Counted from the stretch's first letter, positions 13,193 to 34,133 are shown. The stretch is DNA of 64,000 bases from an uncultured Eubacteriales bacterium (GCA_964456985.1 CAYWDH010000005.1:17247-81246); one strand, 5' to 3'. A program made the numbers and translations. The notes: generated by a model not told the origin, from the letters alone.

Positions 13193-15759
13193 TGCCGAAA
13201 AAAAGAACAGCAAAAAATCAAAAATATCTTTTTGATATTAAAGAATATCTCTCCACAGCTCATTGTGTCCCTGCTATAAGGGAAGCAGTGGCTGAATGGA
13301 GAGAAGGAGGATATAAAGGAATCACTAAAACCACAAAAGAGCTTCTAAACTTCTGGTTCTATTCAGACCATATATTACCAAACGGCAATAAATTTAGTTA
13401 TTATTTATGTCAACAAGAAGCTATTGAAACGATAATTTACCTTTACGAAATAGAAAATGTCAGAACGAGAAAAGACTTATTAGAGCGTTTCGCATTTAGT
13501 ACAAAAGACTTGCGTCTTCCTCCAATTGATAAGTTTGGTCGATACTGTATTAAAATGGCTACAGGAACTGGAAAAACAAAGGTAATGGCATTAGCTATAG
13601 TGTGGCAATACTTAAACGCAGTCAGAGAGGATGATAATAAATTTGCCAAAACATTTCTTATTATAGCTCCAAACGTAATTGTGTTTGACCGATTAAAAGT
13701 TGATTTTCACGGAGGCAGAATATTTAAAACAGACCCTATGTTTCCAAAACACTTTGAATTATTCTGGGATTTTCAATTTTATATGCGTGGAGATAGCGAA
13801 AGAGCCAGCAGTGATGGTGCCCTTTATCTTACTAATATCCAACAATTTTATGAACGGCCTTCAAAAATTAAAACTGAAGAGCCAGAAGTTTTAACTACTC
13901 TATTAGGTTCGAACCCGAAAAAACAAATATCAGAAATTACTGATTTTAATAAGCGTATCACAAAACGTAGTGGACTTTTAATGGTTCTAAATGATGAAGC
14001 CCACCATACTCATGATGAAAACAATGAGTGGAATAAAGCTATTCACAAAATTCATGATATTAGGAATGTATCTTTACAGCTTGATTTTTCTGCAACTCCG
14101 AGATACTCAAAAGGCTCTCTATTTGCATGGACTATTTATGATTATCCGCTTAAACAGGCTATTGTCGATAACCTCGTGAAACGTCCAATAAAAGGGATTT
14201 CAGAAATTGAGGAAGCAAAGTCAGAAATTTCTAGCGTAAAATATGTAGGATTTCTTACAGCAGCTGTTGAAAGATGGAGAGAATATCGCACTCAATTAAA
14301 GCATTTATCAAAAAGTCCAGTTCTCTTTATTATGATGGCAAATACAAAAGAAGCAGATGAAATTGGAGATTGGATTCAGTCCAAGTATCCATCAGATTTT
14401 GGAGGCAATAAAACATTAATTATTCATACGAAATCATCGGGAGAAATAACCCAAAGAGATTTAGAAAAAGCCAGAAGAGTTGCTCGAGAAGTTGACCGAG
14501 ACGAATCTCCTGTAAATGCAATAGTAAGTGTTCTTATGTTAAGAGAAGGTTGGGATGTTAAAAATGTAACCGTAGTTTTAGGTTTAAGACCATATACGGC
14601 TAAGGCAAATATTTTGCCTGAACAGACTATTGGGAGAGGTTTGAGAATGATGTTTAAGGGATATGCGTCCTCTTATGAAGAACGAGTTGATATTATCGGA
14701 AATTCAGCTTTTCTTGAATTTGTAGATGACTTAGAAATTCTTGAAGAACTAACACTTGAAACCTTTGAGGTTGGAAAAGAAAAACTGAAAATTTCAACCA
14801 TTATGCCAGTTGATAAGAAAAACAACTATGATATTGGAATCCCTGATATTTCGCCCACATTAGCTCGAAAAAAATCTTTATCTGAAGAAATAAATAATTT
14901 AGATGTAATGTCGTTTGACATTAATCCTTTGCCACTTAAAGAAAAAGGAGAGGAGGAGATAAAAACATTTATTTATGAGGGTAGAGATATTTTAACTGAT
15001 GAGAAATTATTAGAAAGAGAATATGAAATACCAAAATCTCAAACCCCAGAAGAAGTTATTGGATATTATGCGAAAAGAATTGCTCAAAATGTTAAATTGC
15101 CATCCCAGTTTGCATCTCTCGTCCCCAAAATAAGAGAATTTTTTAAGAAAAAAGCATTTGGCAAAATAGTTAATTTAAATGATGACGTTGTGATTCAATC
15201 AATGAGTACAAATGTAGCAAGTTACGTTGTATTGAAAGAATTTGAGAAAGCAATAAGAGACCTAATCATAGAAGAGAAAAAGCCTGAACTTTTAGCACCA
15301 AATAGATATTTATCTGCAACCACACCTTTTCCTTTTTCAAAAATAATTATGAAAGCGAGTAAATCTGTATTTAACTATGTTACTTGTGATAATAAATATG
15401 AAGAGTCATTTGCCAAATTTCTTCAATCTGCAAATGATGTAGCTGCTTTTGCAAAGCTTCCAGAACAATTCGGTTTCTGTATTCAATATACAGATAAACG
15501 GGCAAATATTCGTCATTATTACCCCGATTTTGTGACAAGACTTATAGATAATAAACATTGGTTGATAGAAACAAAAGGAAGAGAAGATATTGAAGTAAAA
15601 CTAAAGGATAAAGCAGCAAGGAATTGGTGCGAAAATGCGAGTTTTTTTACGGAAATTGATTGGAATTACATGAAAGTATTACAGAAAGATTTTGATAACT
15701 TGCATCCATCTTGCTTTAATGAATTAAAAAATGCATTGTTTCATCCTGAATTAATTTAA
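13192..15759 (+). CDS. Type III restriction endonuclease subunit (Res-like SF2 helicase plus PD-(D/E)xK nuclease)
   Basis: MATGTGKT Walker A, DEAHH, SATP, LREGWD, EQTIGRGLR, and C-terminal PDF...IETKG. Confidence 0.9.
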   Translation: MPKKRTAKNQKYLFDIKEYLSTAHCVPAIREAVAEWREGGYKGITKTTKELLNFWFYSDHILPNGNKFSYYLCQQEAIETIIYLYEIENVRTRKDLLERFAFSTKDLRLPPIDKFGRYCIKMATGTGKTKVMALAIVWQYLNAVREDDNKFAKTFLIIAPNVIVFDRLKVDFHGGRIFKTDPMFPKHFELFWDFQFYMRGDSERASSDGALYLTNIQQFYERPSKIKTEEPEVLTTLLGSNPKKQISEITDFNKRITKRSGLLMVLNDEAHHTHDENNEWNKAIHKIHDIRNVSLQLDFSATPRYSKGSLFAWTIYDYPLKQAIVDNLVKRPIKGISEIEEAKSEISSVKYVGFLTAAVERWREYRTQLKHLSKSPVLFIMMANTKEADEIGDWIQSKYPSDFGGNKTLIIHTKSSGEITQRDLEKARRVAREVDRDESPVNAIVSVLMLREGWDVKNVTVVLGLRPYTAKANILPEQTIGRGLRMMFKGYASSYEERVDIIGNSAFLEFVDDLEILEELTLETFEVGKEKLKISTIMPVDKKNNYDIGIPDISPTLARKKSLSEEINNLDVMSFDINPLPLKEKGEEEIKTFIYEGRDILTDEKLLEREYEIPKSQTPEEVIGYYAKRIAQNVKLPSQFASLVPKIREFFKKKAFGKIVNLNDDVVIQSMSTNVASYVVLKEFEKAIRDLIIEEKKPELLAPNRYLSATTPFPFSKIIMKASKSVFNYVTCDNKYEESFAKFLQSANDVAAFAKLPEQFGFCIQYTDKRANIRHYYPDFVTRLIDNKHWLIETKGREDIEVKLKDKAARNWCENASFFTEIDWNYMKVLQKDFDNLHPSCFNELKNALFHPELI

Positions 15760-15864
15760 CTCTCAGTATTCTGACCATATTCTGATAGATTTTAGTAGAG
15801 GGGAAACTGGCGTCCCAGGTATGCTGGCTTCTCTAAATCTAATATTTGTAATTAAGGAGGAACA

Positions 15865-16311
15865 ATGAAGATTGAAGCAGAGAAATATGAAGTCATTTTT
15901 GGCTCTAATTTTATATCAGAATGTCCAAGAGTGATTAAATTAATTGGGAAAGGAATAAATAAACAAATCATGAGGTTCAGAGAAGGTGAAGATGGGAAAA
16001 TTCTATTTGATTGTACTGTTAAAGATAAAAAAGGAAATACAGTTACTAGGATTGCAAACAGCTTAACTCAGTATGTTATGAAAGGATATAAAACCCAAAT
16101 TACTGATGATGGGATTAAAGTAATAAATAAAAATACAGGAGATATTTGGTTAGAGTTCGCTTTTGTGAGCCCAAGAAAATTTAAGTTAAATGGGATTTTT
16201 TTCTTGCCAGGATACAAAATAGTTGCAACTGATGAATATTTAGAAATCAACACAAATAGGATTTCTAACTGTAAGTTTTCAAGCTGTTCTGCCGCGATAG
16301 GGCTTGTTTAG
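15865..16311 (+). CDS. Hypothetical protein
   Basis: RBS aaggagg; 148 aa with beta-rich pattern; no family recognised. Confidence 0.75.
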   Translation: MKIEAEKYEVIFGSNFISECPRVIKLIGKGINKQIMRFREGEDGKILFDCTVKDKKGNTVTRIANSLTQYVMKGYKTQITDDGIKVINKNTGDIWLEFAFVSPRKFKLNGIFFLPGYKIVATDEYLEINTNRISNCKFSSCSAAIGLV

Positions 16312-16329
16312 AGTTTTCCTTGAGGCAAG

Positions 16330-16370
16330 GGGAAGCCAGAGACTTTTTAACTCTGGCCTCCCAGATTTTT
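16330..16370 (+). terminator. Intrinsic terminator
   Basis: gggaagccagag...ctctggcctccc stem followed by a T-run. Confidence 0.65.
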
Positions 16371-16462
16371 AATAGACAACGTTACGCTGGAAAATAGCCT
16401 CATAATAGAGGACACACGAAAGTGGAAAAATTTCTCATAAAGGAACCAACAACTAGATTTTA

Positions 16463-17185
16463 ATGTCTCAGAAAAAATCAACAATAGAAATTAAATATTT
16501 ACTTGAAAGAAATACAGGAGTATTTAAGTTTGTTAATCATGACAAAAATGTAATTAAAATTGCTGTGAATCATGGCTGGCTTCCTGGAGCACGTTATACA
16601 CATTTGAGGAACATTAAAATATTTAATAGGTTAGGTTTTCTTGATATTGACTGGAAAAGATATGATTTCAAAAGGCATTTAAAGGCAACGAAAATGACTA
16701 GACCTTTTATGACAGTAGCACGAGATGTTCTAGATAAAAGAGAGCTAAATAAAATTATAGATGAAGCTTTCTCCTTACAAAAATATGCTAAAATAGTTAT
16801 AATAGTTCCGAAAGATAGAAAATTATCATGTCATATAAATAATATAATACCTAAGAATTTTTTATTGGGTTTTAGCGTTACCAGTTCATATGGGGAAACA
16901 AATATTGAACCTAAATACTTTAATAGGCCAGTCCATCTCCTCGGTGGTCGTCCAGAGGTTCAACGCAATCTTGCAAATTTGATGCCAGTAGTGTCATTTG
17001 ACAACAATAGATTCACTCTAGATGCTATCTATGGAGATTACTTTGATGGGCAAATATTTCGACCCCATCCTAATGGAGGTTATATAAGTTGCATTAGAGA
17101 TTCAATAATAAATATAAATAGATTGTGGGAGGATTACAAACCTCCTTATTGGGAATATTCTACAAACTTTAAATTGGAGACATAA
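16463..17185 (+). CDS. DUF6610-like protein with motifs reminiscent of a TGT-type TIM barrel
   Basis: GFLDIDWK, VARD, VHLLGG and SFDNN motifs; family recalled from memory, not searched. Confidence 0.55.
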   Translation: MSQKKSTIEIKYLLERNTGVFKFVNHDKNVIKIAVNHGWLPGARYTHLRNIKIFNRLGFLDIDWKRYDFKRHLKATKMTRPFMTVARDVLDKRELNKIIDEAFSLQKYAKIVIIVPKDRKLSCHINNIIPKNFLLGFSVTSSYGETNIEPKYFNRPVHLLGGRPEVQRNLANLMPVVSFDNNRFTLDAIYGDYFDGQIFRPHPNGGYISCIRDSIININRLWEDYKPPYWEYSTNFKLET

Positions 17186-17187
17186 TT

Positions 17188-17862
17188 ATGGACGACAAGG
17201 AAAAATTCCGTAGAGAATTTTTAATTAATATGTACAACCAAATGTTTAATGATATTAATAGGCATATTACTGTCACTTGGCAATCTATTACTACCTTTGT
17301 TGGTGCATTCGCTATTTTTGCCTTAGCAGAGAGAGAAATTATAAGTGTTGACATTGCTTCTACTTTAGTTGTCTTAATATGTGGCTGGCTCATAGCACAC
17401 GTCATTGACGCTTCATATTGGTATAATAGAAATCTCGCTATTATTGCAAACATAGAAAAGGAGTTTTTAGAAAAAGATGATTTATGGAAAATTCATTATT
17501 ATTTCGGTCAACACAGACCTAAAAATAGAATGATTCACCATCTAAAAATACAATTTTTTTTCGGACTAACCCTAGGATTATCTATACTAATTTTCCATTT
17601 TCTTACAATAGTAATTCCAAGTTTATATTTTTCATTAAGTTTAAAAAGTATAGATTTGAGTAAATGGTTTCCCTATATAGCTCTTATTGTTATTTCAATT
17701 TATATTGTTTGGGTGATAAGACATAGGTCATCAAGTTATAAGGAATTTCTAAAAAATTCACCTGGGATAAAGGTTGATACAACAGACATTATTTATGGAA
17801 AAGGTCATGCATTTGGATTTATGAGAAAAATCAAGAGAAAAAAAAATGAGGAAAGTATATAG
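17188..17862 (+). CDS. Multi-pass membrane protein, candidate defence effector
   Basis: About four hydrophobic segments; begins 2 nt after the preceding stop codon. Confidence 0.7.
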   Translation: MDDKEKFRREFLINMYNQMFNDINRHITVTWQSITTFVGAFAIFALAEREIISVDIASTLVVLICGWLIAHVIDASYWYNRNLAIIANIEKEFLEKDDLWKIHYYFGQHRPKNRMIHHLKIQFFFGLTLGLSILIFHFLTIVIPSLYFSLSLKSIDLSKWFPYIALIVISIYIVWVIRHRSSSYKEFLKNSPGIKVDTTDIIYGKGHAFGFMRKIKRKKNEESI

Positions 17863-17927
17863 AGGAATATAAATTCTATTTCCTAGTCAATGATGAAAAT
17901 ATATGAAAAGAAAATACATGTCTTGAA

Positions 17928-18137
17928 TTGAAAAAGGAGGAACTCATGAAAACAGATAAAAACGTTATCAATCAAATTGAAAAATTATTAGAGAGATATG
18001 AAATTGAAGTTGAGGAAAAAAGAAAGAATGGGATATTAAAGGACAAGACAGCATATACTTATCTCCGGCACGCCAATACTTTCGTTAGATGGTGCAAAGA
18101 TGATTTCATCCCAGGCGAAAGAAATATAAATAAATGA
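17928..18137 (+). CDS. Small hypothetical protein (integrase N-terminal SAM-like flavour)
   Basis: TAYTYLRHANTFVRWC motif. Start may instead be the ATG at 17946, which has RBS aggagg. Confidence 0.6.
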   Translation: MKKEELMKTDKNVINQIEKLLERYEIEVEEKRKNGILKDKTAYTYLRHANTFVRWCKDDFIPGERNINK

Positions 18138-18214
18138 GAGTTAAGGAAGCTCGAAAGGAATAATGGCTTTTGAGATAGGCGAAAGAAGAAACAGGAAATT
18201 CTCACTAAATTTAA

Positions 18215-18457
18215 TTAGCTTTTTAGCTTTTTTTCATAAGTTCGTATAAAGTCTATAAATTTAATATCCAAACCACGACAGATTGTCATAAGTTCAACAA
18301 TATCTAACCTTCGTTCGCATCTTTCATATTTACTAATATATGTCTGGTCAGTTCCAATCTTTTGGGCTAACTCTAGTTGAGTCAGATTTGCAGACTTTCT
18401 GAATTTTTTTAGGCATTCTACCAAAATTTTATATTCTTCCCTATGAATAGTCTTCAC
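18215..18457 (-). CDS. XRE-family HTH regulator
   Basis: RKSANLTQLELAQKIGTDQTYISKYERCERRLD; GTG at 18457 with an upstream AAGGA is preferred over the ORF-track start at 18514. Confidence 0.88.
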   Translation of the reverse strand: MKTIHREEYKILVECLKKFRKSANLTQLELAQKIGTDQTYISKYERCERRLDIVELMTICRGLDIKFIDFIRTYEKKLKS

Positions 18458-18505
18458 TTGGAATTTCCTTAAAAACCTTGGTGTTATTAAACATGTAAAT
18501 TCAAA

Positions 18506-18552
18506 ATATGCCAAAATAGCATATTGACGAGGGAAGCAAACAAAGTTATGCT
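18506..18552 (+). promoter_or_regulatory. Promoter with overlapping palindromic operator between the divergent XRE and lipoprotein genes
   Basis: TTGACG-N17-TATGCT at 18524-18552; ATATGC-N7-GCATAT at 18506-18524. Confidence 0.6.
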
Positions 18553-18637
18553 TAAAGCAAGCAAATTAATAATCCAGTTTAAAGAGGAAAATGAAGAAAG
18601 ATTTTATAAAAATCTTCATGAAAAAAGGAGGTAAGAA

Positions 18638-19129
18638 ATGAAAAAAGGAAAAGGTGGAACCTTCATCATTGTCTTTGTACTTTCACTCTCAGTGATTATG
18701 GCCGGATGTAACCAAGCGGAGAAAGAGCGAGAAGCTCAAATCAAGCAAAAGAAAAAAGAGAGGGCGGAGACTATAGATAGAATGGAGAGTTCATTTAGAG
18801 GCATCCTTCAAGGGAGCGGGTATATATTTGCAGATGTTAACTTGATAGAAGAGGAGGAGTTTATAAACTTCTATTTTTCGTTCTGGAAACGTATGGATAA
18901 AAATGAACTGTCCAAAACTATAGGGGCTTGTATTGCGATAGTTGGAGAAGCATCAAAAGATGAAAATTGGAAATGGGGAAGAGTTTATTTCAGATATGGA
19001 GATGCATACGAAGGGGAAAAATTGGGTTGGATTACTTCTTATAATTGTAGAGAGGCTCTTAAACATGAGGACAATCCAGAGCAAATGAGAAAGATAATAT
19101 CCGAGAATTGGCATGATTGGATAGATTAA
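18638..19129 (+). CDS. Putative lipoprotein
   Basis: RBS aggaggt; signal peptide with MAG-C lipobox. Confidence 0.72.
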   Translation: MKKGKGGTFIIVFVLSLSVIMAGCNQAEKEREAQIKQKKKERAETIDRMESSFRGILQGSGYIFADVNLIEEEEFINFYFSFWKRMDKNELSKTIGACIAIVGEASKDENWKWGRVYFRYGDAYEGEKLGWITSYNCREALKHEDNPEQMRKIISENWHDWID

Positions 19130-19130
19130 G

Positions 19131-19388
19131 AAAAGAGCCAAGGCACTGAGAAAAAAATGTCCATTTCTTAAAACGGATATACCACCTGCTTTATTCTATA
19201 ATTCTCGTTACCGATAAAAATAATTATGTCTACTTTTCATCAGCGTAACTTCTTTATTTACAACACTTCTTGATTTTACATAAAAAACGGGACGATTATC
19301 GTGAATTTTGTCCCAAAATGGGCAAAAAAACGGGTATATTTTCCCAATCAAGTCCAAAAATACGCCTATTTTTAGCCTTTTTGTCCCA
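19131..19388. repeat. Direct repeat B, copy 1 (~260 bp dif-containing module)
   Basis: Colinear but diverged similarity to 35710-35966, e.g. aaacggata..ccacctgc, gtgaattttg.cccaaaatgg, ttcccaa.caagtccaaaaa. Confidence 0.88.
19207..19234 (+). other. XerC/XerD dif-like recombination site
   Basis: GTTACCGATAA-AAATAA-TTATGTCTACT: 11-6-11 layout, ATAA/TTAT inner palindrome, XerD arm resembling TTATGTTAAAT. Confidence 0.7.
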
Positions 19389-19430
19389 TTTTATTTTGCC
19401 GAACTACCGAAACTTTATGAAAATAACTGC

Positions 19431-19459
19431 TTGACAACCGCACTGTAATGACCTATTTT
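19431..19459 (+). promoter_or_regulatory. Sigma70-type promoter for the terminase module
   Basis: TTGACA-N17-TATTTT. Confidence 0.55.
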
Positions 19460-19716
19460 CTGAATAGGTGTTCCGTTCCCCTGCTTGAACGGGACTTAGG
19501 TATAAAGGTAAATAAACCCCAAGTAAGTCAGTATTAGAGGGTCATCTTCTGGTATAGGTCTGATTGAGTTTGTCTGTCTTATGGCATCTCATAGGGAGAA
19601 ATTTTAGAGAAAATGAAAAGAGACCAGATAGAGGGAATAAAAATGAGAATACAATTAACTATCTACCCTTATAATCGTCGTTTCTGGGGCGTTTCAGAGC
19701 CTTATTTGAGGAGAAT

Positions 19717-20181
19717 TTGACTATGTCTAAGGCTGATTCTGGAAGGGATTCACAAGGAAGATTTACGAAGGGGAATAAAGCCGCCATAAAGCATTATTGC
19801 CATACGTTTCTTGTAACAAATAGACTCCCTAAAATTCGTGGAGTAAGGAAGATTCAGAAGAATCTGGATAGGGTCAGAAAAGAGCTTGAGTCTAGTGTTT
19901 CCAAGATGACTGTCCAGAAGCAAATCCTGATTGACCAAATCGTAAAAACACAGGGTTTTTGCTCACTATTCGAGCTATATGCCAGAAAGATGGGATTATT
20001 TGACCCCCAGGATGGTAAAAAAGGAAAAATCTCTTTTATGCCAGGATTCAAGACTTATATCAGTCTGTTAAACAGTCAGCGGAGGGCATTATTTGCTCTT
20101 GGGTTAGATAGACAGGCTCAAGAGCAGATTTTAACTCCGCTCGAAATCACACAAAAGGAGAGTGGAAATGAAAGATATTAA
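19717..20181 (+). CDS. Putative terminase small subunit
   Basis: GRDSQGRFTKGNKAAIKH N-terminal motif typical of TerS-like proteins; directly upstream of TerL. Confidence 0.6.
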   Translation: MTMSKADSGRDSQGRFTKGNKAAIKHYCHTFLVTNRLPKIRGVRKIQKNLDRVRKELESSVSKMTVQKQILIDQIVKTQGFCSLFELYARKMGLFDPQDGKKGKISFMPGFKTYISLLNSQRRALFALGLDRQAQEQILTPLEITQKESGNERY

Positions 20182-20326
20182 GACTGTTGATGATTTACGA
20201 AGGGAGTATCCAAAACTTGTAAAAGAGATTGAAGATAACGCTCTCATTAGTGGAGGGAAAAAGCACTCATTTGACAGAGAGATACGGAGAGCTAAAGCAC
20301 AGGCAAGGAGACTAGCTGGAGTATAG
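20168..20326 (+). CDS. Small protein (52 aa) between terS and terL, not in the ORF track
   Basis: Own translation MKDIKTVDDLRREYPKLVKEIEDNALISGGKKHSFDREIRRAKAQARRLAGV; RBS ggag; overlaps the terS end and stops 1 nt before the terL ATG. Confidence 0.6.
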   Translation: MKDIKTVDDLRREYPKLVKEIEDNALISGGKKHSFDREIRRAKAQARRLAGV

Positions 20327-20327
20327 A

Positions 20328-21920
20328 ATGAACATTATTCAAGCTCTCGATGACGAAAGATTTTTCAAAGGTCTGTTCAAAGATTCTTCCACCTGGGCGT
20401 CATGGAGAGTTTTTCTCAAAGCATTATTCGGACTTCCAATTGAAGACAAAAAGGAACTTGAGCTTTTCAGGAAATGCACAGGAAGAAAAGAATTTTTATC
20501 TAAGCAAGCTAGAGAATGTTACGTAATAGCAGGGAGACGCTCAGGAAAGTCCTTCATTTCTGCGGTTATCGCTGTATATTTAGCCTGTTTTTTTGACTGG
20601 ACACCTTTTCTAACTACGGGGGAGCTGGGTTCTATTTTCATTATTGCAACGGATAAAGAACAGGCTCGTATTGTTAAGGCTTATATAGACGGGATTCTTA
20701 ACTCGACTCCACATCTTGCGAAAACAATAGAAAAAAGCCTTGTTTGGGAAATTGAATTGAACACAAGAGTAAACATTGCAATCAAAACCGCTTCATTCAA
20801 AACTGTCAGAGGATTCACATTGTTAGCTGTCATAGCTGAAGAACTTGCATTTTGGAGAGATTCAGAGACCTCTGCAAATCCAGCTCAAGAGATTCTAACC
20901 GCACTAAGACCCGCACTTTCAACTATTCCTAATTCTCTCCTTCTTGGAATTTCCACTCCATACAGCCGTTCGGGAGTTCTTTGGGAACATTTTCATAAAC
21001 ACTATGGAAACGACGAAAGAGAGGCTCCTCTAGTCTGGCAAGCTGACACTTTTACTATGAACCCTACAATAAACAAATCCATCATTGAAAACGCTCTCAG
21101 AGATGATTACTCAGCGGCTTCTGCTGAATGGCTTGCCAGATTTAGGGATGACCTTGAGCAGTTCTTATCATTAGAACTTATCGAGCAAGCAGTCATCCCT
21201 GGACGTATCGAACTTCCAAAGATTGCAGACACTCGGTATTTTGCTCATTGTGACCCAAGTGGAGGACGTGGAGACTCAATGACCCTGGCAATCAGTCACA
21301 AGGATTCAGACAGTCAGAAAATCGTCCTGGATGCTGTCAGGGAAGCCAGACCCCCTTTCGTACCCAGAGATGTGGTCAAAGACTTTTCCAAGGTTTTGAA
21401 AAGTTACGGAGTCGAGCGTTTACAGCTTGACCGTTACGCCGCAGAGTGGACTGTTTCAGCTTTTAGAGATGAAGGAATCATGCCAGAGTCGGTAAAGAAA
21501 TCAGCTTCTGAGCTTTATATAAATTTCTTGCCTTTGATAAGCAATCGAAGCATTGAACTCTTAGATAATAAACGACTCGTTTCACAATTTAAATCCCTGG
21601 AGCGAAAAACAAGGAGTGGAGGGCGAGATTTAGTTGACCACCCTCCAGGAGCACACGACGATTTGTCAAATGCTACTGCTGGGGCTTGTGTCCTTGCCTC
21701 TGAGATTCAAGAAAATGATTCAGAAATCATTCTCTCACTTCTAGAAGCAGAGGCGGAATCTATCTTGACAGATGAAGAGGAGCTTGAGCGGCGTTTTACA
21801 ACCTGGCTCTTAGGTGGTGAATTACCTCCGACAAAAGAGGAGCAAGAAGGTAAACCCAGGCAGGGAAAACCAAGGACAGTTTTGACAGTAAGTGAATGGG
21901 ACAGAAGAAATGATAAATAG
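20328..21920 (+). CDS. Terminase large subunit
   Basis: AGRRSGKS Walker A, AVIAEELAFW Walker B, LGISTP coupling motif, RNase-H-like nuclease DPSGGRGDS and HDDLSNA. Confidence 0.88.
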   Translation: MNIIQALDDERFFKGLFKDSSTWASWRVFLKALFGLPIEDKKELELFRKCTGRKEFLSKQARECYVIAGRRSGKSFISAVIAVYLACFFDWTPFLTTGELGSIFIIATDKEQARIVKAYIDGILNSTPHLAKTIEKSLVWEIELNTRVNIAIKTASFKTVRGFTLLAVIAEELAFWRDSETSANPAQEILTALRPALSTIPNSLLLGISTPYSRSGVLWEHFHKHYGNDEREAPLVWQADTFTMNPTINKSIIENALRDDYSAASAEWLARFRDDLEQFLSLELIEQAVIPGRIELPKIADTRYFAHCDPSGGRGDSMTLAISHKDSDSQKIVLDAVREARPPFVPRDVVKDFSKVLKSYGVERLQLDRYAAEWTVSAFRDEGIMPESVKKSASELYINFLPLISNRSIELLDNKRLVSQFKSLERKTRSGGRDLVDHPPGAHDDLSNATAGACVLASEIQENDSEIILSLLEAEAESILTDEEELERRFTTWLLGGELPPTKEEQEGKPRQGKPRTVLTVSEWDRRNDK

Positions 21921-22053
21921 AAGCTTATATCTAACGACGTCCACACCAAAAAGACTGTCCTTCTTTTTCAGGTGTTTTATGCCTATGGAGCAGGGCGGCT
22001 GTTTTTTAAAAAGAACAGTCGCCCTTCCTCCTAAGGTCAAAAGAGAGTGAAAA

Positions 22054-22656
22054 ATGACAAAGAAAGAAATTGAAAAAATCCTTATAAGCAAGATTCTGGA
22101 AAATCCTCATTTTATCCGCTTCGATAAAGCTCCGGCCGTTTACCCAGAACATAATGAACATGCAGGGTTACTCTGGAAGATTTTTTACCTTTTCGAGACC
22201 AGAACATGGACAAGACTCAGCAGGGAAAATGATGGTTTGATTTTGTCTGTTTTGGATAAAATCGCAAAGGAAGGGAAAGCTAAATTTTTCAGTGTGGAAC
22301 TCACAAAAGACATGCATCATGATGACATTCGCTTCAGGTGTGAAATCGGGACAGCGAAAAGGACAAACGGAACCTGTGATGTTAAACAAACAACTATAAG
22401 GCTCTATTCGGATGAACCTCTTACAAAAAAAGAGAAGAAAGAGCCTTACACTATTCTGAATGTTAAAGAGCAATTTGAGAAAATAAGAGAGGAACGAGAC
22501 AAGGCATTCAGAAAAGAGTTCGGATGGAGATACGACTTCGACCTCGAAAAGAAACTCCGCAACCAGGAGCTAAAAGCTCAATCTGAACTGAGACGAAACA
22601 TACGAGCAATCAGAAAATGGACTCAGGAACATGATGAAAAACAAAAAAAGGCTTAA
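22054..22656 (+). CDS. Hypothetical protein of the element core
   Basis: 200 aa ORF with a charged, coiled-coil-like C-terminus. Confidence 0.7.
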   Translation: MTKKEIEKILISKILENPHFIRFDKAPAVYPEHNEHAGLLWKIFYLFETRTWTRLSRENDGLILSVLDKIAKEGKAKFFSVELTKDMHHDDIRFRCEIGTAKRTNGTCDVKQTTIRLYSDEPLTKKEKKEPYTILNVKEQFEKIREERDKAFRKEFGWRYDFDLEKKLRNQELKAQSELRRNIRAIRKWTQEHDEKQKKA

Positions 22657-22749
22657 TATAAAATGGCTCATACTGGTTTTTCAAAGAATAAAGGGGCAGT
22701 CGTTTTTCTAACTTGTAACGACCGCCTCGACTAAAAGAGCAAAGGAAAG

Positions 22750-22884
22750 ATGAGTTATAAAAAGCTTTCAGTCCCAGAAATTAAGAGAGAAAATCCCTGG
22801 GGATATCTCAAAGATAGAATCAGGTTTTTTATTTGGCTTTTAAAGTGGAGTGTCATTCTTTTAATTTTAGGGGTTTGTTTTTAA
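22750..22884 (+). CDS. Possible 44 aa single-pass membrane peptide
   Basis: Own translation MSYKKLSVPEIKRENPWGYLKDRIRFFIWLLKWSVILLILGVCF; aaagga upstream. Confidence 0.4.
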   Translation: MSYKKLSVPEIKRENPWGYLKDRIRFFIWLLKWSVILLILGVCF

Positions 22885-22906
22885 TATGGAAAAAATCTTT
22901 AATCAT

Positions 22907-22949
22907 AGCCAAGAAGGGGAGGTCATTGCTTCTATCCTCCCCTCTGGCT
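22907..22949. terminator. Hairpin, probable terminator
   Basis: agccaagaaggggagg...cctcccctctggct inverted repeat. Confidence 0.5.
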
Positions 22950-23130
22950 CTTCAAAAAATTGGGTTTTTTTGAAAAATGATTAAAATAATAGATAAGGTC
23001 GCTCCGTCGTTTGGAGTGATGGTCATTTAGAACCCAGTTCTGGGTTGGTCATTAGGCTCGAAAAATCGAGCGGTTCCTTGAACTTGCGTTCAGCAAGTGG
23101 TGAATTAAAAAATTTAATAGAAAGGAGCCA

Positions 23131-23571
23131 ATGGCTATGATTAAAAATCCAAACTCAAACCCAAACCTGGGAAGAAGAAATCACCAAACAGCCGTTACTT
23201 TTGATGGTGTACATTACGGACAAACACCAATTGATTTGCTCGCAGACCCTAATATTAAACCACAGCTAAAAGTTTTATATTCAGCTTATCATTTACACTG
23301 TCCGCAAAAATATCTAAGTTCAAATCCGTTTACCTTCGTCAGTCAAAAAAGAATCGGCAGAGAATATCTTGGATGGAGTCAACAAACAGTTTCATATTGG
23401 ACAAAAAAACTTGCAGAGGAAGGCTGGCTGACAATCATAAGACTCGGACAAGGAAAATCCAACATCATCATTTTACACGATAGAAAAGGGAAGCGTATTA
23501 CAGCAAAAGAGCGGAAAAATTTCATCAAATCTGTCAAACTTCAACAGGCTAGATACCAATCCTCTTTGTAA
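23131..23571 (+). CDS. Winged-HTH protein, putative replication initiator / replisome organiser
   Basis: SQKRIGREYLGWSQQTVSYWTKKLAEEGWL HTH pattern; followed immediately by iteron-like repeats. Confidence 0.6.
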   Translation: MAMIKNPNSNPNLGRRNHQTAVTFDGVHYGQTPIDLLADPNIKPQLKVLYSAYHLHCPQKYLSSNPFTFVSQKRIGREYLGWSQQTVSYWTKKLAEEGWLTIIRLGQGKSNIIILHDRKGKRITAKERKNFIKSVKLQQARYQSSL

Positions 23572-24085
23572 CTAGATACCAACCCTCTTTGTGCTAAATA
23601 AATAAGAATAAATAAATAATAAATTTATTATTATCTTTTTTAAGATTTAAATAAATTTATTATTTATGAATAGAAGATATAATGTAATGTATATCTTCTA
23701 TTTACCCTGTGTAATACGCTCTCATACTGTAATACACACTGTAATACACACTGTATTACACACTGTATTACACTTTGTATTACATCCCTCGCTTCGCTCG
23801 GGGAACGCCTTCGGCGTCTCTGAATCTTAGAAAGTTTACTGAACAGACCCTTCAGCATTATTTCAACTTCAGCATTATTAGAAAATGTCCAGAATGTCCA
23901 GATATCAGGAATGTCCAAAATGTCCAGAATGTCCGAAAAAAGGGGACAAAAAGCAAATTGAGTTTACTCAAGAACGACCTTTAAATTAGTGTAATACAGA
24001 GAGTGTATGTAATACGTCCTTAATATAGCTGTAATACATTTCTACCTCAGGGTAATACACAATAATTTTATAGTGTAATACACAA
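23549..24085. repeat. Origin-like region with three families of short direct repeats and an AT-only tract
   Basis: 2x ctagataccaa(t/c)cctctttgt (23549, 23572); AT-only tract ~23596-23670; tandem 12-mers ctgta(a/t)tacaca ~23727-23775 plus scattered gtaatac; aatgtcc repeats ~23884-23934. Confidence 0.75.
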
Positions 24086-24130
24086 TTTCAATCAAAAATA
24101 GCCGTTTTTCATACTCTCACACTGGAGAGA

Positions 24131-25552
24131 TTGAAAATGGATTCTTTACTAAATACAAAACAGCTTTCAGAATACTTAGGAGTATCCAAAAGCACAGTAT
24201 ACAGATACATAAAAAATCTCGGTCTCCCTTACTATCAAATCCAAGATTCAAAACTCCTATTTAAAAAGGAAGAAGTTGATGAGTGGGTGAATCATCACAA
24301 AACAACGTACAAGCTTACTGACAAAATTTTAAATAATTTGTTGACAAATCCTGTTCGAGAAAATATTGATAAGGTTGAAGGAGGTCAAACAGTGGCGAGA
24401 AAAAAGACTCGTCACAATTACGGCTATGGTTCGGTTTATGTCAGGAAAACAAAAAAGGGAATATCAAGGTATTACATCGAGTATTACGATTCAGAAGGAA
24501 AAAGGATTCAGAAAGTAGTAAAAAATGCAGTTGATTGGAATCCTGCACATGAGGCTTTAAGAGATGCTGTCTACAAAGTACATTTCCATAAAATTGACTC
24601 AAAAATTCAAAAGAAAACTATCAGATTTAAATCATTCTCTGAAATCTATCTCAAAGACTATGCTATGAGAAAAAAATCATGGGAACGCTCGGAAAAAGTG
24701 TATTTGAACGCCAGCCTTATCCCCTACTTCGGAAAATATAAAATCAGAAAAATCACACAGCACCACATTGAGCAATTCATTCGTGAGAGACAAGAAAATG
24801 GAGTTAAAAAATCAAGTATCAATCGTGAACTTTCATGTTTGAGTATGATGTTCAAGAAAGCTATCAGTTGGGGATATTTGAGCGAGAATCCATTGGAACA
24901 TATCAAGCGATTTAAGGAGAAAGATAACATGAGGGAAAGAGTCCTGTCAGAAAAAGAAGAGTCAAGGCTTTTAGAAAATTGTGCAGACCATCTGAAGCCT
25001 ATCATCATCACCGCTCTTAACACCGGAATGAGGCTAGGAGAGATTCTACAGCTCAGATGGAGTCAAGTTGACTTTAACACAAGAAGAATCAAAGTAGAAA
25101 ACACAAAAAGCGAAAAGAACAGGGTCATTGGAATCAATGAAGACCTGTACAATGTTTTGAAGCAAAGAAACACTCAAAATCCTTATGTATTCCCGAATCC
25201 TAGCACAGGAAAAGCACTGACTACCGTAAAAACGTCATTCAAAACTGCTTGTAAGAGAGCGGGGATTGAAAATCTGCGTTTTAATGACCTAAGACACACA
25301 TTTGGAACTAGACTCATTCAGAATGGAGTAGACATTGAAACGGTGAGAGATTTAATGGGTCATCACAGCATCGTTGTCACTCAAAGGTACCTTCATACGA
25401 ACGATGAAAGAAGGCGGCTAGCTGTTGAATCATTGACCAATAAAGGGACAAAAAAGGTACAAATCTGTGACACGAACTGTGACACGGGGACAAAAAGCGG
25501 AACACCCAAAAATAACAAAACCCACCCAAATGTATTATTTTCAGCCAATTAA
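24131..25552 (+). CDS. Tyrosine integrase with an in-frame N-terminal excisionase-like HTH
   Basis: LLNTKQLSEYLGVSKSTVYRY (Xis/HTH_17 pattern); catalytic residues in TGMRLGE, FNDLRHTFG, MGH and TQRY; internal aaggaggt-N6-GTG start at 24392. Confidence 0.92.
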   Translation: MKMDSLLNTKQLSEYLGVSKSTVYRYIKNLGLPYYQIQDSKLLFKKEEVDEWVNHHKTTYKLTDKILNNLLTNPVRENIDKVEGGQTVARKKTRHNYGYGSVYVRKTKKGISRYYIEYYDSEGKRIQKVVKNAVDWNPAHEALRDAVYKVHFHKIDSKIQKKTIRFKSFSEIYLKDYAMRKKSWERSEKVYLNASLIPYFGKYKIRKITQHHIEQFIRERQENGVKKSSINRELSCLSMMFKKAISWGYLSENPLEHIKRFKEKDNMRERVLSEKEESRLLENCADHLKPIIITALNTGMRLGEILQLRWSQVDFNTRRIKVENTKSEKNRVIGINEDLYNVLKQRNTQNPYVFPNPSTGKALTTVKTSFKTACKRAGIENLRFNDLRHTFGTRLIQNGVDIETVRDLMGHHSIVVTQRYLHTNDERRRLAVESLTNKGTKKVQICDTNCDTGTKSGTPKNNKTHPNVLFSAN

Positions 25553-25558
25553 AAAAAG

Positions 25559-25611
25559 AGCCAGCGAGAGGATTCGAACCTCCGACCTACTGATTACGAA
25601 TCAGTTGCTCT
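25559..25611 (-). pseudogene. 3' 53 nt of tRNA-Thr(CGT), att junction; 5' half absent
   Basis: Reverse complement AGAGCAACTGATTCGTAATCAGTAGGTCGGAGGTTCGAATCCTCTCGCTGGCT gives anticodon arm (CGT), T-arm and acceptor 3' strand; no 5' acceptor strand adjacent. Confidence 0.9.
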
Positions 25612-25700
25612 TGCAGTGTTTTCCCTATGTTATATGGGTTAGCCAGAAAAAAAGTTTTAGCCAATTATAGCCGTAATTAGGCGTTTTTATTCAAAATCTG
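25583..25700. repeat. Direct repeat A, copy 2
   Basis: Matches 10967-11084. Confidence 0.9.
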
Positions 25701-25834: not shown

Positions 25835-26974
25835 GTGGATAATTCATTACTAAAATCGTATGATTGGGACTTTGTAGATACCTCTTCAAGTAATGGAGTT
25901 CACTCAATCCACTCATACCCTGCTAAATTTATTCCTCAAATACCTCGTCAGTTAATTAAATTATTTGCAAATGACAAGAGTAGAGTAATTCTTGATCCAT
26001 TTTGTGGCTCAGGAACTACGCTTGTTGAAGCAATTCTAAAGGGATTTGATGCATGGGGAATTGATATAAATCCAGTTTCTTGTCTTATTTCAAGGGTTAA
26101 AACTAGGCGTCTTCCAAATAATTTTCTATTTGTTTTGAGACAAGTGCTTGAAGAGGCAAAAGAGCATTATGCAAACAATACAGTCATACTTCCTGAAATC
26201 CCTCGATTAGACCATTGGTTTAAGAAAGATATTCAAAAAGCTGTTAAAGCTCTTTTAGATAAAATCAACTTGCAGGAGAGCATCCTAATAAAAGAAGGCC
26301 TACAGGTTGCTCTCTCGAAAATTTTGGTACAGGTTTCTAATCAGGAAAGTGATACGCGATATGCTGCTGTCGAAAAAAACGTAACCTATCTAGATGTTTT
26401 TGTTAAATTTGAGAAGGCCGCAGTGATTGTCTTCAATGAATTATCCAAAATATCAGATGACCTCTTTAAAAAGCTTGGCAAAGCCGTGGTGATAAATAAA
26501 GATATTATGAAGACCAAAGGCAAAGATTTGCCTGATAATATCGGTTTAATCATTACTTCACCCCCATATCCGAATGCATATGAGTACTGGCTTTATCATA
26601 AATATAGAATGTATTGGTTAGGAATGGACCCAATAAAAGTGAGAGAGAATGAAATAGGCGCTCGACCTCATTATTTTAAGAAAAATCATCAAGATGAAAG
26701 GGACTTTGAGAATCAGATGAGTAAATGTTTCGAACTTCTGTCACGAGTAATGATAAAGAATGGAAAGGCATGTTTTCTCGTAGGAGATTCTGTTATACAT
26801 GGGAAAACGATTGATAACTCTTTAATATTACATCGAGCGGCAGAGCCATATGGATTTAAAGTAATCGATGAAGTCGAACGCAATATCTTAGTCACACGAA
26901 AGACATTTAATCCAAAACATGGAAGATTAAAAAAAGAAACAATCTTGGTGTTTTCTCTTAATGAAAAGATATGA
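25835..26974 (+). CDS. DNA methyltransferase 1 (probable N4-cytosine)
   Basis: HSYPAKFIP, DPFCGSGTT and TSPPY motifs. Confidence 0.88.
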   Translation: MDNSLLKSYDWDFVDTSSSNGVHSIHSYPAKFIPQIPRQLIKLFANDKSRVILDPFCGSGTTLVEAILKGFDAWGIDINPVSCLISRVKTRRLPNNFLFVLRQVLEEAKEHYANNTVILPEIPRLDHWFKKDIQKAVKALLDKINLQESILIKEGLQVALSKILVQVSNQESDTRYAAVEKNVTYLDVFVKFEKAAVIVFNELSKISDDLFKKLGKAVVINKDIMKTKGKDLPDNIGLIITSPPYPNAYEYWLYHKYRMYWLGMDPIKVRENEIGARPHYFKKNHQDERDFENQMSKCFELLSRVMIKNGKACFLVGDSVIHGKTIDNSLILHRAAEPYGFKVIDEVERNILVTRKTFNPKHGRLKKETILVFSLNEKI

Positions 26975-28575
26975 AAGTAAAATTTCACTGGCACAATTAT
27001 AAATATTTCCCATATGAAAAAGACTTAGCTAGACGAGAATTGTTATCCTTAACAAAAACTAAGCCAAAACTAACAAAAGAGAATATAGCTGTAGAAGCTC
27101 CAAATAGCTGGAAAGATATTGCATTCAGAACTACCTATTTTCGGGAAGCGATAGCAGAAGATGGGACTATAATAATACCCCAACAAGCTCATTTTGAACT
27201 TACAGCAAATGGGGTATCTGAATCAGGGGACTTTGGTGGTTCATTATCCCTTAACCATCAGTCAACCAGATATTCTGCACATGGAATTCACGAATTCCGT
27301 GGAAAGTACAATCCACAGATAGTACGAGCAATAGGCAACATAGTTGGCATTAAACCTGGGGATTGGATTATTGACCCTTTTTGCGGGAGTGGGACGACGT
27401 TGTTAGAATCAGCCCATACTGGTTGGAACGCTGTCGGGATTGAATTGAATCCTCTTGGTGTAGAGATTACAAACGCTAAAATTGCCTCTATAAAAGTGCC
27501 TGAAGACATGTTAATTGCTGAAACTACAAAGTTAAAAGAGAATTTGAAAAAAAAATGGAATTCTTATTCTTTCGAAAAAGCATTTTTAAAAAAACAAATT
27601 GATTCATTACAAAAAACAAGTCTAGATAATATATTTCTCAATTGGAATTATCTTAAAAAGTGGTTTTCTGGGTCAGTACTAATACAAGTTGCATCTATAG
27701 TCGAAGAAATAAAGAAGCTTTCTCTTCCAGACATACAAAATATATACAAAATATTCTTGAGTGATATTTTGCGTCATGTTTCTTTTCAGGATCCTGGAGA
27801 TTTAAGAATAAGGCGAAGGAAACATCCTGCTCCCAATTATCCTGTAATACCATTATTTGTTGAATCCATTTCATCAAAAATAAAAAATATCATATTAGCC
27901 AGAAAATTCATTTCAGATGATAAAACTTATCAAAAAGCGATTCTTGAAGATACCCGATATATTTCAGAGAGAATCAATGAACATAAAATGCCTAAGGATA
28001 GTGAAATTTTTGATGCTGCTATTACAAGCCCTCCTTACGCTACTGCACTCCCATATATTGATACTTCTAGATTGAGCCTTACTCTGCTCAACTTTATAAC
28101 ATCAGATATTATTCATAAGACAGAAAAAAAATTGATTGGAAGTAGAGAAATTACCGAAAAAGAGAGGCAAAGTTATTATGAATCCATTGTCACTAATCGA
28201 AATAAACTTCCTAAAGAATGCATTAATTTGTGTAGAAGGCTAAGAAATGCAGTTAATTTTGAAACAGACGGATTTAGAAGAAAAAACGTTCCTGCTTTAC
28301 TTTATAAATATTTTGTAGATATGCAATTGACATTTAAACAGATGTCCAATCTCCTTCGTCTTCATGCGCCTTATGCAATTGTTATAGGAATGAATAGGAC
28401 AACACTTGGTGGTAAAGAATTTATTATTAATACCCCTCTGTTGTTGACTCGCCTGGCTGAAGAAAGCGGATTTTCATTAGAGAAAAAAATTAGATTGAAT
28501 ACATATCAGCGTTTTGACATTCATAAATTGAATTCAATTAGGGATGAAATATTGCTAATTTTAAGGAAAACATAG
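26971..28575 (+). CDS. DNA methyltransferase 2 (probable N4-cytosine) with N-terminal extension
   Basis: HEFRGKYNP, DPFCGSGTT and TSPPY motifs; ATGA overlap with MTase 1. Confidence 0.88.
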   Translation: MKVKFHWHNYKYFPYEKDLARRELLSLTKTKPKLTKENIAVEAPNSWKDIAFRTTYFREAIAEDGTIIIPQQAHFELTANGVSESGDFGGSLSLNHQSTRYSAHGIHEFRGKYNPQIVRAIGNIVGIKPGDWIIDPFCGSGTTLLESAHTGWNAVGIELNPLGVEITNAKIASIKVPEDMLIAETTKLKENLKKKWNSYSFEKAFLKKQIDSLQKTSLDNIFLNWNYLKKWFSGSVLIQVASIVEEIKKLSLPDIQNIYKIFLSDILRHVSFQDPGDLRIRRRKHPAPNYPVIPLFVESISSKIKNIILARKFISDDKTYQKAILEDTRYISERINEHKMPKDSEIFDAAITSPPYATALPYIDTSRLSLTLLNFITSDIIHKTEKKLIGSREITEKERQSYYESIVTNRNKLPKECINLCRRLRNAVNFETDGFRRKNVPALLYKYFVDMQLTFKQMSNLLRLHAPYAIVIGMNRTTLGGKEFIINTPLLLTRLAEESGFSLEKKIRLNTYQRFDIHKLNSIRDEILLILRKT

Positions 28576-28576
28576 A

Positions 28577-29785
28577 ATGATTATAGAAATAATACCTCAA
28601 ATGGAGACAGGAAACATACAGCGTCTTCGGGTTGGAGATTTCCTAAATCAAACCATCAGTAACAATGACTTTCTTAGCTTTAAATTTATTGTTGCGTATA
28701 TGAGATTCTCTGGTTGGGATAGACTCGGTGCTTCCATAGAGAATCTTTTGGATCGAGAAGGTCTGATTTCAGGGGTAGTCGGAATTGATTCAGGGATTAC
28801 AAGCCAGGAAGCTCTTAAAGCCTTAATGAGTGTTTCTAGCTCAAGTACGGTTTTTTATAGTACTTCGAACTTCATTTTTCATCCTAAGGTATACGCCATA
28901 AGTGGGAAGGAAAAGTCTATAATTCTAGTAGGAAGTGCAAACTTCACTCGAGATGGACTATTTAGAAACTTTGAGATAATGACTGCTATTCATTTGGATT
29001 TTAATGATAGTATTGATTTAGAAGTACACAATAGGTACGAGGTAATACTAGATGAATTATTAGATATCCATAATGCCAATGTGCAACCTCTAAATAGAGA
29101 GACATTAAGGCTTTTGGTCGAAAATAATTTAGTGAAACCTGAATCGGAAGGAATAGAGCCTGGAGAGAAAGGCTTACAACGAGGAAGACAAGGAGAGCTG
29201 CCCAACTCTCAAATAGGGGCTATGTTTCCCCCGCTTGGTATCCCTGTTGCTCCTCCCGGATATCGTAGTAGTGTTAGACCCACAAGGCAACCTCCTGGTC
29301 AAAGAAGGAAAGTGATAGTAGTCCCTCCACAGGTCTCAGGAGAAGCTCGAACATTTATAATGAAGCTATCTGAATTTGATTCTAGTCATCGAAGCGGGAT
29401 TTCTGGAACAGCAGAGGTACTCATCCCTCATAGAGCCATCCAATTTTTTCCAGAATTGTCACATACTACAAGAAAATATCCAGACGCAGTGTTTGATGTT
29501 GTTTTACGTACTCCCAGCGGACCTGAAAGGCGCAGATTTAGACTTTGGTATTATGAATTTAGGGCCACAGGGTCAAAAATAGATGAATATCGTTTGCGCA
29601 TGGATAAAGAGACAATTGATATAAGTTCGCCTGGTGGAGGAGACTTGTTAGTGATTAATAAGTTACCTGAGGGAAGCGATCCAGAATTTGAAGTTACAAT
29701 ATTGCCTCAAACTGACCCAACATATCCAGCGTTCTTTGAACTTTGTACGCAAGAATCTCAAGGAAAGAGATGGGGCATTGCTTAA
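28577..29785 (+). CDS. Phospholipase-D-family restriction endonuclease (BfiI/NgoFVII-like)
   Basis: FHPKVY...VGSANFT HxK nuclease motif, Pro/Gln-rich linker, separate C-terminal domain; coupled to two MTases. Confidence 0.8.
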   Translation: MIIEIIPQMETGNIQRLRVGDFLNQTISNNDFLSFKFIVAYMRFSGWDRLGASIENLLDREGLISGVVGIDSGITSQEALKALMSVSSSSTVFYSTSNFIFHPKVYAISGKEKSIILVGSANFTRDGLFRNFEIMTAIHLDFNDSIDLEVHNRYEVILDELLDIHNANVQPLNRETLRLLVENNLVKPESEGIEPGEKGLQRGRQGELPNSQIGAMFPPLGIPVAPPGYRSSVRPTRQPPGQRRKVIVVPPQVSGEARTFIMKLSEFDSSHRSGISGTAEVLIPHRAIQFFPELSHTTRKYPDAVFDVVLRTPSGPERRRFRLWYYEFRATGSKIDEYRLRMDKETIDISSPGGGDLLVINKLPEGSDPEFEVTILPQTDPTYPAFFELCTQESQGKRWGIA

Positions 29786-30118
29786 AAGATAATATTGGGC
29801 TTCCTTAATATGGGGTTTAATTAGATATAAGCTTTTTTCAATACAAGCAAACTATTCTGAAATATTCTATACAGTCTATTTGGGCGATTGGAAGCCAGAA
29901 ACTCTGAAGCTATTGCTTCCCGAATGCAGATTCCGGTCCATTCCGGACACTGATTCCGAATTAATCCGGCCACTAAATCCGGAGCATTCCGGTCACGGAT
30001 TCCGGATTAATCCGGCCATTTTTTACTGGGTTTCGGAATCATTGATCAGCGAAGCGGCGCTGGATAACTTGATGAGAATAAGCCATCATGTCTCTTTTAA
30101 AAAAGAGAGGAGAACAAG

Positions 30119-31651: not shown

Positions 31652-31749
31652 AGGGTAAAAGTTTTACATCATTTAAAGAAAACGCGTTATACGGCATCTG
31701 AGAGCCTGTTTTTTTTAAGCTTTAAAAACACAGAAAAAAGGAGATAATC

Positions 31750-32508: not shown

Positions 32509-32809
32509 TGATAGACCAGCGTCGCTTCGCTCCGGAATGTGGCCGGATTAAATCGGAATCGGTGGCCGGATACGCCGGAATAAGCACCGAAGAAGAAATG
32601 ACGGCAATGTCGGAAATGCATCCCACTTAGATAGGCGGTTTATAAATAGAGATATTCTCATCTCAGGAAAAGAAATAACTATAAATAACTAAATTTCATT
32701 TAAATTGTGATGCCCTCTTTATCTTGACAGCTAATTAAACTAAGAATACATTTATAGTAAGAAAATAAGAGCAAAAAGGTCAAACTTAATAAATATATAC
32801 TAAAAAAAA

Positions 32810-34105: not shown

Positions 34106-34133
34106 AATCAAAAATTAGTGTCTTTTTTAGAAA

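Follow-up and report, generated by a model that had tools for sequence, protein, structure and literature searches.

The 64,000-nucleotide (nt) stretch of DNA analysed here (the window; GCA_964456985.1 CAYWDH010000005.1:17247-81246, from an uncultured Eubacteriales bacterium) contained, at positions 10954-25700, an integrated element with terminase genes of its own, a member of a widespread family of elements of ~6.5-15 kb in Aminicenantes/Acidobacteriota and other environmental bacteria. The core of this family comprised a protein of a new family in the position of the small terminase subunit (TerS), a large terminase subunit (TerL) of a distinct clade, helix-turn-helix (HTH) regulators, a replication module and a recombinase. 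All coordinates are positions in the window, where the core spanned 19717-25552, from the start of a 154-amino acid (aa) open reading frame (ORF) to the stop codon of a 473-aa integrase. In order, it held the 154-aa TerS-position protein (19717-20181, +), followed by a conserved 54-aa ORF (20162-20326); a TerL of 530 aa (20328-21920, +); a 200-aa protein (22054-22656, +) from a conserved family whose fold had no match; a small winged HTH (wHTH) Rep-like protein of 146 aa (23131-23571, +); an origin-like region (23595-24092); and the tyrosine integrase (24131-25552, +). All core ORFs were intact, with the integrase, Rep-like, TerS-like and TerL genes uninterrupted, and only 2.2 kb separated TerL from the integrase.

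TerL satisfied the definition of its family, an N-terminal ASCE ATPase joined to a C-terminal RNase H-like nuclease, both by its motifs and by its matches to PF03354 (Pfam, E = 9e-6), to phrog_2 'terminase large subunit' (PHROGs, E = 4.9e-24) and, when a profile of 32 homologs was used, to the nuclease domain of a Thermus-phage TerL (PDB 5TGE/5M1F, E = 1e-4); NCBIfam contained no model for it. Across an alignment of the 32 homologs, the Walker A motif G69-R-R-S-G-K-S75, the Walker B/catalytic pair E171-E172 and the acidic nuclease residues D309, D316, D368 and D444-D445 were invariant or near-invariant. These matches and the alignment confirmed the ~6-kb core with intact TerL ATPase and nuclease motifs that had been described in the initial annotation of the window. 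Selection on TerL was purifying (dN/dS of 0.19 at a dS of 0.6) between two capsid-less copies found in one genome (L023 and L024).

The 154-aa protein belonged to a helical protein family, C1, that was kept directly upstream of TerL at essentially all loci (by a hidden Markov model of 15 members) and was present in 57 of the 60 metagenome loci having enough upstream DNA. C1 also stood upstream of TerL in a phage-like contig (L035), a position that supports a role as TerS. Homology to a known TerS family was not found, and we label the protein a putative TerS from its position and its co-occurrence with TerL only. In the TerS and TerL pair named by the initial annotation, the TerL half was upheld, and the TerS half stands as an assignment by position and co-conservation.

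The 200-aa ORF that follows TerL had been flagged beforehand as a possible capsid or portal remnant. A word-index search with this ORF returned the ORF itself only, and a full HMMER search seeded with the pair of window and L001 sequences returned 94 cluster representatives, nearly all of ~200 aa and aligning end to end. An AlphaFold2 model built from 37 sequences had a predicted local distance difference test score (pLDDT) of 94.8 (an earlier model from two sequences, with a pLDDT of 49.6, was unusable), and predicted an N-terminal alpha/beta and wHTH-like part followed by a long C-terminal helical hairpin. Foldseek comparison of the model with PDB and BFVD gave nothing at E <= 1e-3, just partial overlaps of wHTH type, and the model matched no capsid or portal fold. 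The family also followed TerL in L001, L055/L056, L094 and other loci. We conclude that the 200-aa ORF represents a family of its own at full length and is not a remnant. For the interval 21920-23130 as a whole, a capsid or portal remnant was rejected: BLASTP of the 200-aa ORF against the major capsid protein (MCP) of a relative was empty, as was tblastn with the MCP and portal proteins of relatives in both the window and the metagenome-assembled genome (MAG) to which it belongs. Kinship of the 200-aa family to other proteins found after TerL (C6, C7 and C9) was likewise tried with hhalign, and none was found.

Matches of the 146-aa wHTH protein to 'replication initiation O-like' families were weak (phrog_678 and phrog_428, E = 5e-6 to 9e-5), and a PDB search gave no match. 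An AT-rich palindrome, five tandem 12-nt repeats of the CTGTAATACACA type, further copies of GTAATACA and AATGTCC repeats lay 3' of its gene, in what reads as an iteron-type origin pattern, and we treat the region as a putative origin. The integrase predicted in the core was corroborated by a match to PF00589 (E = 2e-37), and it carried a fused N-terminal excisionase-type HTH_17 domain, an architecture shared with L031, L059 and L060. An Rfam scan of the island gave a single sub-threshold chance match, and promoter and terminator scans gave no excess over shuffled expectation.

None of the scanned ORFs of this island, or of a coreless second island that adjoins it on the right, matched a head, tail or lysis family in Pfam or PHROGs. 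Together with the empty tblastn searches with relatives' capsid and portal proteins, these scans bear out the earlier description of the interval between the attachment-site repeats as free of recognisable structural genes.

More than 1700 TerL homologs were found in metagenomes at 50-67% identity (54-67% for the closest), and the best phage TerL among 50,697 phage records searched was just ~23% identical. We annotated the neighbourhoods of ten homologs with Pfam (L001, L002, L055, L059, L060, L061 and L090-L093). All ten shared a small layout in which HTH regulators and a protein of 125-240 aa preceded TerL, and a few small ORFs and then a recombinase followed it (a tyrosine integrase, except for the serine recombinase of L001); a primase or an AAA_25 helicase stood on one side or the other of the terminase genes. 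Capsid, portal and tail Pfam families were absent from all ten, with the sole exception of an S78 prohead protease in L061. L060 was a minimal version of 6.5 kb, and L059 carried restriction-modification (R-M) and Abi cargo on its far side, as in the window element. The same layout was repeated in twelve loci from related genomes, among them a second copy of the family in this MAG (G000:C3:85000-104900, L019), whose TerL was 50% identical. In a metagenome set of 80 loci, 25 showed TerL with a downstream integrase, at a distance of 5-4606 nt (median 2.8 kb). No MCP, portal, protease or tape-measure-like gene was detectable in 21 of these 25 contigs, in searches with few jackhmmer seed sequences that could miss weak homologs, and 0 of the 74 metagenome loci checked for a portal had a homolog. 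The family was distributed sporadically, often in multiple copies: it occurred in 17 of the 61 relatives and in 19 of the phylum's 401 genomes, and tRNA genes adjoined many of its members. The order of genes in L019 was a repressor-like protein of 320 aa, HTH, HTH_17, a 604-aa protein, TerS-like, TerL, two unknowns of ~200 aa and an integrase. The family also crossed phyla, with a 42% identical TerL beside a Dcm methyltransferase in a Pseudomonadota MAG (Oceanospirillales, L005), and included a sub-lineage with a tape-measure-like protein of 600-760 aa and no capsid or portal (these two observations draw on L005, L134, L145, L167, L169 and L027).

A minority of relatives carried a single HK97 capsid gene, S78 protease or tape-measure-like gene. 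The IMG/VR contig L031 (TerL 61% identical) encoded a TerS-like protein, TerL, an HK97 MCP and an HTH-fused integrase; in L030 (62%) and L061 (58%) an S78 protease lay directly 3' of TerL; and of the more distant relatives, L033 (44%) had an MCP and a portal and L035 (41%) a protease and a tape-measure gene. In the TerL tree, the window and L001 were paired (support 100/100) within a 17-member, mostly capsid-less clade, in which L031, L030 and L061 formed one nested, well-supported subclade; L033, which has capsid and portal, and two large viral contigs, L032 and L034, were placed together as sister to this clade. The grading of head genes and the tree point to a family that derived from tailed phages and diversified as small elements, with single head genes kept or regained in some lines.

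A rival reading is that a prophage or a capsid-forming island has decayed here, with a recent loss of its structural module, and that the terminase genes are leftovers bound to disappear in turn. The single head genes kept by relatives at a TerL identity of 57-62% (the MCP of L031 and the S78 proteases of L030 and L061), the phage-like contigs among the relatives at 41-44% (L033 and L035) and the rearranged state of the locus, with a neighbouring island that has clearly lost its core, could all be read in this way. Recent decay nevertheless fits poorly with the intactness of every core ORF, with a capsid-less layout seen again at dozens of independent loci from different families and phyla, with purifying selection on the TerL of capsid-less copies, with the lack of any capsid or portal remnant detectable by tblastn and with an ORF after TerL that is full-length and of its own family. 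The closest TerL homologs, which the initial annotation had named as a check, were not in complete prophages and shared the same small integrative layout, and since the 200-aa ORF is not a remnant either, we regard recent prophage decay as very improbable. The initial annotation had offered an undescribed satellite class or a reduced prophage: our results support an undescribed class of terminase-carrying elements, and its second option, in the sense of recent decay, becomes unlikely.

The element was bordered by direct repeats of 131 nt, 14,616 nt apart and 83% identical: A1 on the left (10954-11084), comprising a degenerate minus-strand 3' fragment of tRNA-Thr (10954-10991) and then a conserved left-end module, and A2 on the right (25570-25700, within a feature spanning 25547-25700), where the same part contains the left-end module of the next island. 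Both repeats had the minus-strand tRNA-Thr 3' fragment and shared an identical 25-nt core, CGACCTACTGATTACGAATCAGTTG (10967-10991 and 25583-25607). On the right, 65 nt (25547-25611) matched the 3' end of tRNA-Thr(CGT) and 11 nt of its flank on contig C31 of the same MAG at 100%; on the left, the tRNA-like part had degenerated: it was 92% identical across 38 nt and contained an insertion of 16 nt. ARAGORN found no tRNA anywhere in the window. The L001 element shared the left-end module, with 83% conservation across 81 nt, and a motif of the form TGTGACAT-ATT-TGTGACAT (11085-11108, +) lay just inside A1. A third element in this MAG, of 9.2 kb on contig C14, adjoined tRNA-Arg(CCT) and had a related integrase and no TerL, which indicates that TerL is not indispensable for this type of element. 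The motif just inside A1, in the form TGTGACATATTTGTGACATG, occurred also at the left end of the serine recombinase element L001 (~3425-3450) and at both ends of the C14 element (18953-18977 and 28134-28160); it might serve as an operator or a packaging site, or belong to an attachment site. Between cargo and core lay a non-coding repeat, B1 (19131-19388), with 80% identity over 258 nt to a second copy, B2 (35710-35966), that forms the right end of the second island and abuts a truncated host gene. Recombination between B1 and B2 could exchange cargo. When translated, module B showed a weak resemblance (pairwise E = 5e-6) to the N-terminal end of a divergent ORF of 180 aa that lies upstream of the TerS-like gene of L031.

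The chromosome around both islands was that of an Aminicenantes bacterium by its flanking S58 peptidase, which was 93% identical to proteins labelled Candidatus Aminicenantes. The closest syntenic contig, L062, aligned to the window on both sides of the islands (L062 1-5344 with window 5522-10868 at 88% identity, and L062 9062-12190 with window 35954-39082 at 87%), from which it follows that 25.1 kb of the window (10869-35953) replaces 3.7 kb of host DNA (L062 5345-9061). The replaced segment, which was not found elsewhere in the MAG, held the genes for a sigma-70 factor and for a 240-aa protein, together with roughly three quarters of the gene for a TPR-CHAT protein of 977 aa; the N-terminal stump of this last gene survives, fused to 47 codons of B2, as a 236-aa ORF (35823-36533, -). 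L062 had no tRNA at the island locus. The replacement of host DNA at a locus without a tRNA shows that the two-island array is real foreign DNA and that it did not arrive by a clean integration at a tRNA alone. It also raises an alternative that does not exclude the family reading, in which the family is real and this particular copy is an immobilised relic, a defence carrier fixed in the chromosome and incapable of excision. The degenerate tRNA-like part of the left repeat, the array that replaced 3.7 kb at a place where L062 has no tRNA and the adjacent coreless island with its IS21 insertion would suit a relic; the perfect 25-nt core in both repeats, the uninterrupted integrase, Rep-like, TerS-like and TerL genes and a right repeat that is still 100% identical to its tRNA-Thr(CGT) target over 65 nt would not. 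We consider immobility of this copy possible, if rather unlikely.

Known satellites share parts of this organisation. Phage-inducible chromosomal islands (PICIs) encode no more of a packaging machinery than TerS (or Rpp) and rely on the TerL of their helper (PMC10690885, PMC10085698). The window element was like classical PICIs and Staphylococcus aureus pathogenicity islands (SaPIs) in its size (14.6 kb, against ~10-18 kb for SaPI-type PICIs), an integrase at one end, an HTH switch (here with an XRE-type HTH protein), Rep with iteron origin (here origin-like repeats), a packaging gene and accessory or defence cargo. It differed from them in having a full-length TerL with intact motifs as a core gene (20328-21920), although SaPI-type PICIs are defined as lacking a large terminase, and in having the 146-aa wHTH protein, a weak Rep match, and no primase where PICIs have a primase-helicase; relatives of the window element do have PrimPol/AAA_25 proteins. 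Capsid-forming PICIs (cf-PICIs) carry capsid, portal, protease and head-tail adaptor/connector genes besides terS and terL (PMC10085698; bioRxiv 10.1101/2022.09.08.507074). Like the window element, they are small and integrative and combine an integrase and regulators with a replication module and the two terminase subunits; all other virion parts have to come from a helper. The window element had the terL, integrase and replication module of a cf-PICI and lacked its own set of capsid, portal, protease and adaptor/connector genes; no family member showed a portal, and its TerL was only ~23% identical to the best phage TerLs. The Streptomyces satellites MiniFlayer and MulchRoom also have their own small and large terminase, together with portal, major capsid, scaffold and head-tail adaptor genes (PMC10690885); they share the terminase pair with the window element and differ from it by their head genes. 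Tycheposons (bioRxiv 10.1101/2020.12.28.424599) and virion-encapsidated integrative mobile elements (VEIMEs; PMC9618062) are reported to carry terS or MCP and 'motor-like ATPases', with no TerS/TerL pair. Compared by description rather than by homology of hallmark genes, they resembled the window element in tRNA-associated integration, partial tRNA repeats, tandem arrays, separate cargo and core and satellite-like subtypes with one packaging gene, and differed in their hosts, marine cyanobacteria and Pelagibacter. None of the P4-like core genes (psu, delta, sid, epsilon and alpha-primase) was among the Pfam and PHROG matches of the island. PICI-like elements (PLEs), which also have a RepA_N initiator and PLE-specific genes, were set apart by their large serine recombinase, in place of which the window element has a tyrosine integrase, and by their Vibrio/ICP1 setting, as against an Aminicenantes host, and a functional temperate prophage (Caudoviricetes) by the lack of head, tail and lysis modules beside the terminase. 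Within the literature searched, whose coverage was incomplete, we found no description of an integrative family with TerS/TerL only.

With modest confidence, we favour a reading of the element as a phage satellite with a private terminase, for which a helper phage would supply procapsids (portal included), tails and lysis. Upon induction by a helper phage, the HTH-fused integrase may excise the element at the 25-nt core found in both repeats, and the Rep-like wHTH protein would then fire the adjacent iteron origin. The TerS-like/TerL operon would recognise and cut concatemers of the element and pump its DNA through the portal of procapsids made by the helper, and with its own terminase the element would be independent of the helper terminase and a competitor of it. 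The variable slot after TerL, filled by the 200-aa wHTH/coiled-coil protein here and by a capsid protein, a prohead protease or other unknowns in relatives, probably provides products that adapt packaging to the helper. A broader proposal, which we offer tentatively and hold to be somewhat short of probable, is that these elements constitute a large class of satellites, so far undescribed, which have no portal and mostly no capsid and whose hallmark would be a private terminase holoenzyme (a new TerS family and a deeply divergent TerL clade) able to dock on the portals of unrelated helpers. The hypervariable slot after TerL would supply interchangeable helper-adapting factors, here a protein with a fold not seen before and in other elements a lone capsid protein, a prohead protease or a tape-measure-like protein.

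Several points weigh against the satellite reading. Both the dependence on a helper and the packaging into its proheads are purely inferred. No helper phage is known for the family; no resident helper prophage was detected in the MAG, and the HK97 capsid (PF05065) and portal (PF04860) families were absent from it at 86% completeness. Close matches in IMG/VR were few, and there was no circular contig among the 80 metagenome loci. The 154-aa protein, queried singly and as a 15-member profile, matched no TerS or other family in Pfam, PHROGs, NCBIfam or PDB. The family is not cleanly 'terminase-only', as it grades into capsid-bearing elements, and the degenerate left repeat and the 3.7-kb replacement at a non-tRNA locus mean that this copy may no longer be mobile.

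The terminase pair might instead have been recruited for another task, as a decoy or interference factor against phage packaging or for the processing of concatemers for vesicles, transformation or gene transfer agents. Defence cargo surrounds the pair (type III R-M, DitA and others), neither helper nor portal was seen across the family, the C14 element has an integrase without TerL, and systems that target phage terminases are known (bioRxiv 10.1101/2025.02.27.640495). A working packaging motor, on the other hand, would need conserved ATPase and nuclease motifs and tight coupling to the TerS-position gene, and both are present; the capsid, prohead protease and tape-measure-like genes of relatives point to virion morphogenesis, and no PADLOC model matched TerL or the 200-aa protein. 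We judge such a recruitment unlikely.

If the satellite reading is right, the element would represent a third satellite strategy, with a motor only, beside the two found in the literature searched: satellites that borrow the TerL of a helper (PICI, P4, PLE and phage-inducible chromosomal minimalist islands, PICMI) and satellites that carry TerL with a full head (cf-PICI and MiniFlayer). It would also mean that a foreign TerL can engage the portal of a helper, which bears on the specificity between terminase and portal. The family is abundant in metagenomes from sediments and the subsurface and in phyla that have been little studied, and it carries defence cargo; it could therefore contribute significantly to gene flow and to phage interference, by a route that current satellite finders do not model. 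Two uncharacterised protein families, that of the TerS-position protein and that of the 200-aa protein with an unmatched fold, are offered for study.

The left part of the element carried cargo. A type III R-M system came first (Mod at 11174-13192 and Res at 13192-15759, both +), with the Pfam domains N6_N4_Mtase, ResIII and RE_endonuc and with PADLOC matches to MTase_III (E = 4e-101) and REase_III (E = 7e-20). It was followed at 15865-17862 (+) by a 148-aa ORF, a DUF6610 protein (16463-17185; PF20314, E = 4e-50) and a 224-aa hydrophobic protein, which is probably a membrane protein, judging by the hydrophobic stretches in its translation. The DUF6610 gene ended 2 nt before the gene of the 224-aa protein, and the two (16463-17862), which had no match in PADLOC, form a candidate pair of uncharacterised cargo genes. 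A third group at 17928-19129, with tblastn similarity to L020, comprised a 69-aa ORF (+), a repressor-like XRE-type HTH protein (18215-18514, -; NCBIfam RstR/HipB-type HTH, E = 2e-7) and a lipoprotein-like ORF of 163 aa with a visible lipobox (18638-19129).

Starting from 25700, the second island had the same left-end module as the first and a copy of module B, and no core. Its contents (25835-35966) were two methyltransferases and a phospholipase D (PLD) nuclease, an IS21-family insertion, a 431-aa ORF, a DUF5677/DitA protein and B2. The insertion (30119-32508) encoded an IstA-like transposase and an IstB ATPase, was present as a single copy in the MAG assembly, and was preceded by 23-nt tandem repeats (29932-30018). 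The 531-aa DUF5677 protein (34134-35729) was a PADLOC match to 'DitA' (E = 9e-38); the 431-aa ORF upstream of its gene had no match, and the two together could be a two-gene defence system. Just to the right of the islands, at 38142-42054, lay four tandem paralogous genes encoding proteins of ~310-326 aa, which had no Pfam match and were 72-78% identical at the DNA level, with a period of 956-968 nt.

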